Under the pieces are notes generated by a model. It had not been told where the DNA came from, searched no databases, and saw only the letters and a program-made list of their open reading frames with translations. Source: Escherichia coli (GTDB lineage Bacteria; Pseudomonadota; Gammaproteobacteria; Enterobacterales; Enterobacteriaceae). From it: 64,000 nt of DNA. Shown piece after piece: positions 60,463 to 61,404 of this stretch (position 1 is its first letter; the number at the start of each line of letters is the position of its first letter). The DNA lies in assembly GCF_045037415.1 (NCBI RefSeq), contig NZ_CP173440.1; one strand, given 5' to 3'. The position numbers were made by a program, and so were the translations under genes.

Positions 60463-61404
60463 GTATTCCCCCCGTGTGCGGGGGTTATCGGCAACCTCAA
60501 TTCCTAATGGCTGTCTAAGGAAAGTATTCCCCCCGTGTGCGGGGGTTATCGGCAGGGTTTGCCCTTTTGCACCGCGCAGCGGTCGTATTCCCCCCGAGTG
60601 CGGGGGTTATCGGAGCAACGTTTCCGGATTATATGGCTGGAACGTGTATTCCCCCCGTGTGCGGGGGTTATCGGTGGTGCTCTCAACCGTCACCCGCTGG
60701 CTGGAAGTATTCCCCCCGTGTGCGGGGGTTATCGGTGGTGTTGTCCACGGTCACCCGCTGGCTGGAAGTATTCCCCCCGCATGCGGGGGTTATCGGGCAC
60801 CCTCACGGATACCTTTTGCACAGTGTTAGTATTCCCCCCGCATGCGGGGGTTATCGCCTTAGAGAAGCAAAAACCCCACCGAGGCAGGGGTATTCCCCCC
60901 GTGTGCGGGGGTTATCGGTTACTTTTTGGCAGTTGGTAAAACACTTTTGCGTATTCCCCCCGCATGCGGGGGTTATCGGCGAAAACGGCAACCTTCATAA
61001 AAACGTCTTTTGTATTCCCCCCGTGTGCGGGGGTTATCGGCCGAGATTGAGTAAAGCAAAGTAACGGCGGTGGTATTCCCCCCGCATGCGGGGGTTATCG
61101 GCAGCGTCTGAACGGACGAAACATCCCTGTTGAGTATTCCCCCGTCTGCGGGGGTTATCGGCGAGCGCTCTCCTGGTAAATCGGTAGCTCGGAGTATTCC
61201 CCCCGCATGCGGGGGTTATCGGGCTGGATTTCCGTCAGTTGGTCAGCTGCTGCTGTATTCCCCCCGTGAGCGGGGGTTATCGGTTCCGGACTCCTGTTTC
61301 CGGCAGTGGATTAAAGTATTCCCCCCGCATGCGGGGGTTAACGGCACTACCAGATCCGAATGGACACCCGTAATGAGTATTCCCCCCGCACGCGGGGGTA
61401 TCGA
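60463..61404 (+). CRISPR. CRISPR array: 16 repeats of 29 bp (GTATTCCCCCCGTGTGCGGGGGTTATCGG) and 15 spacers of 32 bp
   Basis: Strict 61-bp period from 60463. Repeat 12 is 28 bp. Repeat 16 is degenerate (GTATTCCCCCCGCACGCGGGGGTATCGA). Confidence 0.97.

Follow-up and report, generated by a model that had tools for sequence, protein, structure and literature searches.

The window, the whole stretch of 64,000 nucleotides of Escherichia coli DNA, contains five cas genes in the order csf1-cas6-dinG-csf3-csf2, which lie directly upstream of a CRISPR array and on the same (+) strand. The first of them, csf1 (55423..56214), encodes a type IV Cas8-like large subunit (PADLOC Csf1_2_IVA3, E=1.8e-122; Csf1gr8, E=5.5e-151), and cas6 (56211..56783) encodes a Cas6e-like protein of the IV-A3 kind (PADLOC Cas6_0_IVA3, E=7.8e-86; Pfam CRISPR_assoc). 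The dinG/csf4 helicase gene (56753..58660) matched PADLOC Csf4_0_IVA with E=1.1e-262, together with Pfam DEAD and Helicase_C_2; this ORF is counted from its first TTG, and the annotation of related records (e.g. L041) places the start at about 56786. They are followed by csf3 (58654..59361), which is Cas5-like (PADLOC Csf3gr5, E=7.2e-125), and csf2 (59366..60397), which encodes a Cas7-like backbone subunit (PADLOC Csf2_1_IVA3, E=6e-151). The E values of the IV-A3-specific PADLOC models ranged from 1e-52 to 1e-262. [quoted passage not shown] Regarding the flanks of the operon, PADLOC found no cas genes among the two ORFs upstream of csf1, and a group II intron and umuD are located downstream.

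The region between 55400 and 63600 of the window showed 99.7% identity to K. pneumoniae plasmids of about 310–360 kb, and related arrays reside on IncFIB/IncHI1B, MOBH, MPF_F conjugative plasmids. Judged by this sequence identity, the host element of the array is a plasmid of the Klebsiella IncHI1B/IncFIB type. The group II intron occupies the region 61700–63600, between the end of the array and umuD (start at about 63675), and includes a group II intron RNA at 61771–61996 (Rfam RF02005, group-II-D1D4-6, 186.6 bits) and a reverse transcriptase/maturase ORF at 62101–63588 (RVT_1). The related plasmid pD120-1_296kb has no group II intron at that position, and its umuD lies a few hundred bases past the array.

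An AT-rich leader of 65 bp (60398..60462, + strand) separates csf2 from the first repeat. A conserved 65-bp leader is known for IV-A3 systems (PMC7434947), and the leader found here agrees with it in length. A simple scan of the leader found no sigma-70 consensus promoter, which is uninformative. The array itself (60463..61405, + strand) has a period of 61 nt and contains 15 spacers, of which 14 are 32 nt and one is 31 nt long, set between 16 repeats of 29 nt. The 29-nt repeat consensus is GTATTCCCCCCGTGTGCGGGGGTTATCGG, and its predicted fold is a hairpin whose G/C stem has 6 bp and whose loop has 4 nt. Because the degenerate repeat is at the leader-distal end, spacer 1 is the newest.

Several further features of the array were observed. 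The loop variants CGTGTG and CGCATG alternate among the repeats along the array, and in repeat 12 (61134–61193) the C-run is one base shorter (GTATTCCCCCGTCTG...), giving a unit of 60 nt rather than 61. A minus-strand terminator-like hairpin followed by a T-run is present at 60874–60889 inside spacer 7, but the number of such structures was not above that in shuffled sequence and this one is probably due to chance.

Spacer 4 (60675..60706, TGGTGCTCTCAACCGTCACCCGCTGGCTGGAA) and spacer 5 (60736..60767, TGGTGTTGTCCACGGTCACCCGCTGGCTGGAA), both on the + strand, are separated only by repeat 5 (60707..60735), which is identical to repeats 1, 2, and 4, and the three together make up the interval 60675–60767. 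The first-pass annotation had described these two spacers as differing at four of 32 positions (6, 8, 11, and 14) while encoding one peptide, VLSTVTRWLE. Parsing of the array gave the same four positions, and all four differences are silent; of the six reading frames, only frame +3 gives identical peptides. The codon changes it had listed, CTC/TTG (Leu), TCA/TCC (Ser), and ACC/ACG (Thr), are also those that are present in natural alleles of the target, which we call A (spacer 4) and B (from which spacer 5 derives). When four random substitutions in spacer 4 were simulated, 2.5% of the trials gave only silent changes in one open frame or more, and 0.8% did so in frame +3. Thus the silent pattern by itself is suggestive; what decides the question is the matches to protospacers.

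A BLAST search of the spacers against PLSDB returned mostly other copies of the array, and a minority of the matches lay in annotated genes of small plasmids. Spacer 4 was found as an exact match in NZ_CP029779.1, a non-mobilizable plasmid of 9.1 kb with a ColRNAI replicon, with AAG 5′ of the match. There the protospacer has the sense of the coding strand and falls in the last part of a gene of 222 nt (WP_100792582; 73 aa), at its 3′ end, which reads ATC AAA GTG GTG CTC TCA ACC GTC ACC CGC TGG CTG GAA AAA AAT GGC TAA. The stop of this gene overlaps the start of a gene for a tyrosine recombinase ("site-specific integrase"), and the protospacer ends 4 nt before the recombinase ATG. The prediction that the two spacers fix the coding strand and frame of the protospacer gene was borne out, as the annotated CDS has the same strand and the same frame (+3). 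A conjugation or replication gene had been suggested as an example of what the target might be; the gene found is instead this hypothetical one of 73 aa, which precedes the gene for a tyrosine recombinase.

When the PAM, spacer 4, and the 3′ flank were used together as a query against PLSDB, 40 of 40 positions matched in seven small plasmids, and 39 of 39 matched in an eighth, in which the match runs to the end of the record. The corresponding query with spacer 5 of the window, which has C at position 17, gave no 40/40 match in PLSDB; the best matches were 39/40, in 13 small plasmids. One of these, NZ_CP024491.1, reads AAG TGGTGTTGTCCACGGTTACC..., with T and not C at spacer position 17. The version of this spacer in related arrays and in natural targets likewise has T17, and the T17 form of spacer 5 is exactly the AAG-flanked allele B. 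Therefore the sequences that were originally acquired differ at five positions (6, 8, 11, 14, and 17), all of them silent. Beside the A and B sequences in the small plasmids we found no remnants of CRISPR repeats, and the flanks are ordinary coding sequence. Both sets of matches, then, are AAG-flanked sites in alleles of one gene, which the first-pass annotation had proposed to check by a search of plasmid databases.

In NZ_CP029779.1 the target belongs to a module of three genes (2823–4619), which encode the 73-aa ORF, a tyrosine recombinase of 295 aa, and a hypothetical protein of 232 aa, and which is adjoined by Rop and a ColE1-type replicon. The 73-aa protein is present on at least 1000 contigs and is annotated only as hypothetical. 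Searches for its function in Pfam, PHROGs, and PDB sequences gave no match, and all database names are "hypothetical protein". Its sole match was to an IS6-transposase HTH-like model of NCBIfam, far below threshold (E=0.005), from which the protein may tentatively be described as HTH-like. The gene was not found in the phage collection that was searched.

We then collected natural alleles of the site with the anchor ACCCGCTGGCTGGAAAAAAATG, which comprises the invariant distal half of the protospacer and its 3′ flank, so that the sample is unbiased with respect to the PAM and positions 1–17. Scanning with this anchor gave no loci in genome contigs and 30 in metagenomes, and the 37 alleles studied are these 30 metagenome-contig copies plus seven copies from PLSDB. 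They fall into seven haplotypes of PAM and protospacer, every one of which encodes VLSTVTRWLE. The most common is haplotype B (AAG TGG TG TTG TCC ACG GTT), with 18 AAG-flanked copies, followed by B′, which is as B but with TCG (seven copies). Haplotype A (AAG TGG TG CTC TCA ACC GTC) was found four times, as was A′, which combines AGG TCG with the A block. Two further copies are of haplotype B with AGG, and the remaining two are A-like singletons.

The PAM is AAG in 30 of the 37 alleles and AGG in 6–7 of them. The change from AAG to AGG corresponds to a silent change of Lys from AAA to AAG, and it was seen in alleles L005, L010, L024, and L030 (all A′) and in L028 and L037 (B with AGG). At position 2, G is replaced by C, a silent change of Val, in 11 of the 37 alleles. 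Both the AGG and the C2 variants occur on A as well as on B backgrounds. Sites 6, 8, 11, 14, and 17 are fully linked in the sample, and none of the 37 alleles combines the B block with C17. In all, the polymorphism of the protospacer is confined to positions 2–17 and that of the PAM to its position 2.

Between pairs of the seven PLSDB alleles, 2–15 codons differ silently and 0–2 non-silently, and this excess of silent differences argues for a real gene under purifying selection. Some A records and some B records even encode an identical whole protein (WP_016162091.1). The A/B block is a mosaic with respect to the backbone of the gene: in alleles L009, L014, and L019 the A block is set in a B-like backbone, and in L033 and L036 the B block is set in an A-like one, which indicates recombination.

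The arrays related to that of the window were informative about its history. In pD120-1_296kb (NZ_CP034681.1; positions 1472–1654), A, B, and B′ are three consecutive spacers, each an exact match to a natural allele, and the triple is followed by the same older spacers as in the window. We had considered that the G2 and C2 forms of the spacer in the fifth slot were mutations that arose within the array, and rejected this since B and B′ stand side by side in pD120-1_296kb. Arrays of the order A, A, B′, in which spacer 4 is present twice in tandem, were found in MS6671 (NZ_LN824134.1, 1411–1561) and SKGH01 (NZ_CP015501.1); judged from the sequences, they show duplication or conversion among near-identical units. 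The other states found were A,B; A,B′; A only; and B′ only, as well as A with B(T17C), which is the state of the window array and of pKpvST383L. Even sampling of the roughly 369 PLSDB arrays found with a repeat-flanked B′ query gave approximate shares, with B′ carried by about 60% of the arrays, B without B′ by about 8%, the window-type B(T17C) by about 14%, and A only by about 19%. A further spacer, AGGTATTTGACCTCATCCAGAAAGGCACAGAC, follows directly after the same-site family in five related arrays, L045 (CP034201.2), L041, L043, L046, and L047, and is absent from the window array between spacers 5 and 6 (60767/60768), which suggests that a unit was deleted in the lineage of the window.

On the basis of 11 arrays and of parsimony, the ancestral array was probably the triple A, B, B′. 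In the simplest history, B′ was acquired first, then B, and then A, after which some of the near-identical units were lost, duplicated, or converted; the array states found are those expected if a triple underwent unit loss and conversion. C17 in the window, which has no natural counterpart in PLSDB or among the 37 alleles, is probably a derived change that took place within the array. It could have come from a T>C transition or from a short conversion by the adjacent spacer 4, whose sequence from position 15 onward, C17 included, is that of spacer 5 of the window.

Taking these results together, we consider it highly likely that spacers 4 and 5 derive from separate acquisitions of one AAG-flanked protospacer, in the alleles A and B of a gene on ColRNAI plasmids, and that the window lineage later lost B′ and changed T17 to C. 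Spacer 5 (B) would then be the older of the two, and spacer 4 (A), which is nearer to the leader, the newer; the loss of B′ and the change in the B copy would have come afterwards. The first-pass annotation had also read the pair as independent acquisitions of two diverged alleles from the same site. This stands for spacer 4, which is exact as it is, and for spacer 5 only in the relatives that retain T17. Another account is that one unit was duplicated within the array and then acquired point mutations that happened to be silent in one frame. Unit duplication is real in this family of arrays, as MS6671 and SKGH01 (A, A, B′) show, at least one apparent in-array change exists (C17 of the window), and the simulation above gives the frequency with which chance silence in some open frame would arise. 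However, each of A, B, and B′ has an identical AAG-flanked counterpart among the natural alleles of a real gene, the five differences between A and B are completely linked in the targets, and the spacers on either side of repeat 5 differ at four of 32 positions whereas repeats 4 and 5 do not differ at all. The exact protospacer matches largely refute this account, and we regard it as extremely unlikely.

The literature bears on how the spacers may have been acquired and how they may act. An AAG/NAAG target motif, the use of I-E Cas1/2 in trans, and DinG-dependent silencing have been reported for IV-A3 (bioRxiv 10.1101/2023.06.23.546257), as has the AAG PAM together with the 65-bp leader (PMC7434947), and IV-A3 represses transcription with DinG and without a nuclease (bioRxiv 10.1101/2023.06.23.546257; PMC11781037). 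By analogy, the spacers may have been acquired in trans by the type I-E Cas1-Cas2 of the host, which would explain the AAG PAM. Since the spacers are in coding-strand sense, the crRNAs would pair with the template strand. The crRNAs and DinG would then be expected to silence transcription of the module, the plasmid not being cut, so that the recombinase gene and the gene that follows it are predicted to be repressed.

One strain carries both the array and its target. K. quasipneumoniae D120-1 has the A, B, B′ array with an apparently full-length csf1-cas6-dinG-csf3-csf2 operon, and it also holds pD120-1_6kb (NZ_CP034676.1, 6.8 kb, ColRNAI), in which allele B′ with AAG is located at 621–652 and perfectly matches the third of these spacers (B′). 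Two more candidate pairs of array and target were discarded because the two members came from different strains. A perfect spacer with a co-resident target in this one strain fits a non-destructive, silencing effector, and it weakens the case that targeting strongly harms the small plasmid. It also fits the reported presence of self-targeting spacers in about 60% of the IV-A3-bearing CG147 isolates (PMC11781037).

The same site was thus sampled three times. Among 43 distinct spacers from 11 arrays, no spacer outside the same-site family matched any of the 37 small-plasmid loci. Each small plasmid has 94–248 AAG sites, and with uniform sampling a triple from one site would have a probability of about 1e-4, which indicates that the site is privileged. 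One explanation is that this AAG site is preferred by I-E Cas1-Cas2 on a high-copy and often co-resident plasmid, each passing allele being sampled with no arms race; we hold this to be a serious possibility, if something short of probable. The exclusiveness of the same-site family among the 43 spacers and the low probability of a uniform triple speak for it, and so does the end of the protospacer, which is AA followed by an A-run. Yosef and colleagues reportedly described, in 2013, an acquisition affecting motif consisting of a 3′ AA. In D120-1 a perfect spacer and its target are present side by side, which also suggests weak counter-selection. PMC4027179 cites a downstream "acquisition affecting motif" as reported for highly preferred I-E protospacers, but that study could not itself reproduce a downstream motif. 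In addition, preference for the site alone leaves unexplained why the AGG PAM and the position-2 variants are found on both backgrounds.

Another explanation is that the plasmid escapes IV-A3 silencing by synonymous substitutions in the PAM and in the half of the protospacer next to it, or by recombination in a diverged block, while the array regains a spacer against each escape allele and selection keeps these acquisitions. The first-pass annotation had suggested that the array tracks variants of its target, and allelic variants of one plasmid gene, taken in the same register, were indeed found; that they are "escape variants" is a further step, which we infer. Such an arms race is possible but rather doubtful. 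On its side are the order of the spacers from old to new (B′, B, A), the restriction of the polymorphism to protospacer positions 2–17 and PAM position 2, and the recurrence of AGG and of G>C at position 2 on both the A and the B background. Lambda escapes IV-A3 through PAM positions 2 and 3 and the seed (bioRxiv 10.1101/2023.06.23.546257), and the AGG and position-2 variants of the target fall in those positions. The nucleotide diversity in the 20-nt segment of PAM and seed is 0.106, against 0.029 in the rest of the gene (3.6 times lower) and 0.030 in the recombinase. It ranks 28th of 1037 segments in the first gene plus recombinase, yet only 257th of 1737 across the three-gene module, where it is no outlier; the peak is not unique, and higher segments occur in the recombinase. 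The mosaic of block and backbone would also fit, and there is a precedent in the Legionella I-C system and its target LME-1, where an older spacer is mismatched and a newer one perfect (PMC5071653). However, the codons at the site are all highly degenerate, and the distal half of the protospacer may be constrained by the overlapping start of the recombinase. The perfect target beside an apparently intact IV-A3 system in D120-1 argues that targeting is not strongly deleterious, and five linked changes look less like stepwise escape than like recombination or an old polymorphism. That a single register was used each time could also reflect a process of spacer updating coupled to a silent-site arms race, in which IV-A3 on an imperfect site, possibly with unwinding by DinG, hands the protospacer over to I-E Cas1-Cas2. 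If so, a CRISPR system without a nuclease would have a route resembling priming, by which an escape allele is re-acquired in the same register. IV-A3 has no Cas3, and only same-site spacers and none from neighbouring sites were found, which is not the usual pattern of priming; we regard this process as improbable.

The system found here is very similar to the IV-A3 systems of Klebsiella described previously (PMC7434947; bioRxiv 10.1101/2023.06.23.546257), with which it shares the gene set, the 29-nt repeat, the 32-nt spacers, the length of the 65-bp leader, the AAG PAM, and the position of the array beside umuDC, and its spacers recur on hundreds of plasmids in PLSDB. Published work on those systems stresses targets in conjugative IncF plasmids (traL, traN), whereas spacers 4 and 5 are directed at a ColRNAI plasmid that is small and non-mobilizable. 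The presence of several spacers against the same or overlapping sequence of one element is shared with the type I-C system of Legionella pneumophila and LME-1 (PMC5071653). There, mismatches in the PAM or seed mark the older spacer of a series, the newer one being perfect, which was read as tracking of escape variants (PMC5071653). The Legionella I-C system, chromosomal or plasmid-borne, is nucleolytic and capable of priming (Cas3), whereas the IV-A3 effector here has no nuclease. Unlike in Legionella, no adaptation genes were seen beside the operon, all three spacers are in one register, and the differences are all silent. The hot protospacers of E. coli I-E (PMC4027179) share with our case the AAG PAM, a spacer of 32/33 nt, a last repeat G that comes from the PAM, and the repeated sampling of one site, but the downstream motif is disputed in that study, and the comparison concerns E. 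coli proteins and not Klebsiella I-E.

In the searchable literature (supplements and subscription journals lie outside it), we found no description of a same-register silent series such as A, B, and B′, and the spacer strings gave no full-text match. Neither small ColRNAI plasmids with the 73-aa ORF and recombinase module as targets of IV-A3, nor conversion among same-site units, were found described there. With a system already known and precedents for the phenomenon, what we report is a new instance of the known tracking of targets by CRISPR, and no new system or mechanism.

Our results provide a natural record in which plasmid-borne, nuclease-free IV-A3 arrays resample one site of very common small Klebsiella plasmids, and in which spacers can be dated relative to the alleles of their target. 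They also show a previously unremarked class of targets, the ColRNAI plasmids that carry the three-gene module of small ORF, tyrosine recombinase, and 232-aa protein. The arrays are reshaped by loss and duplication of units and by conversion between near-identical ones. The presence of a perfect spacer and its target together supports silencing by IV-A3 rather than elimination, and the question of why one site is privileged could bear on the adaptation of CRISPR systems that have no Cas1-Cas2 of their own.
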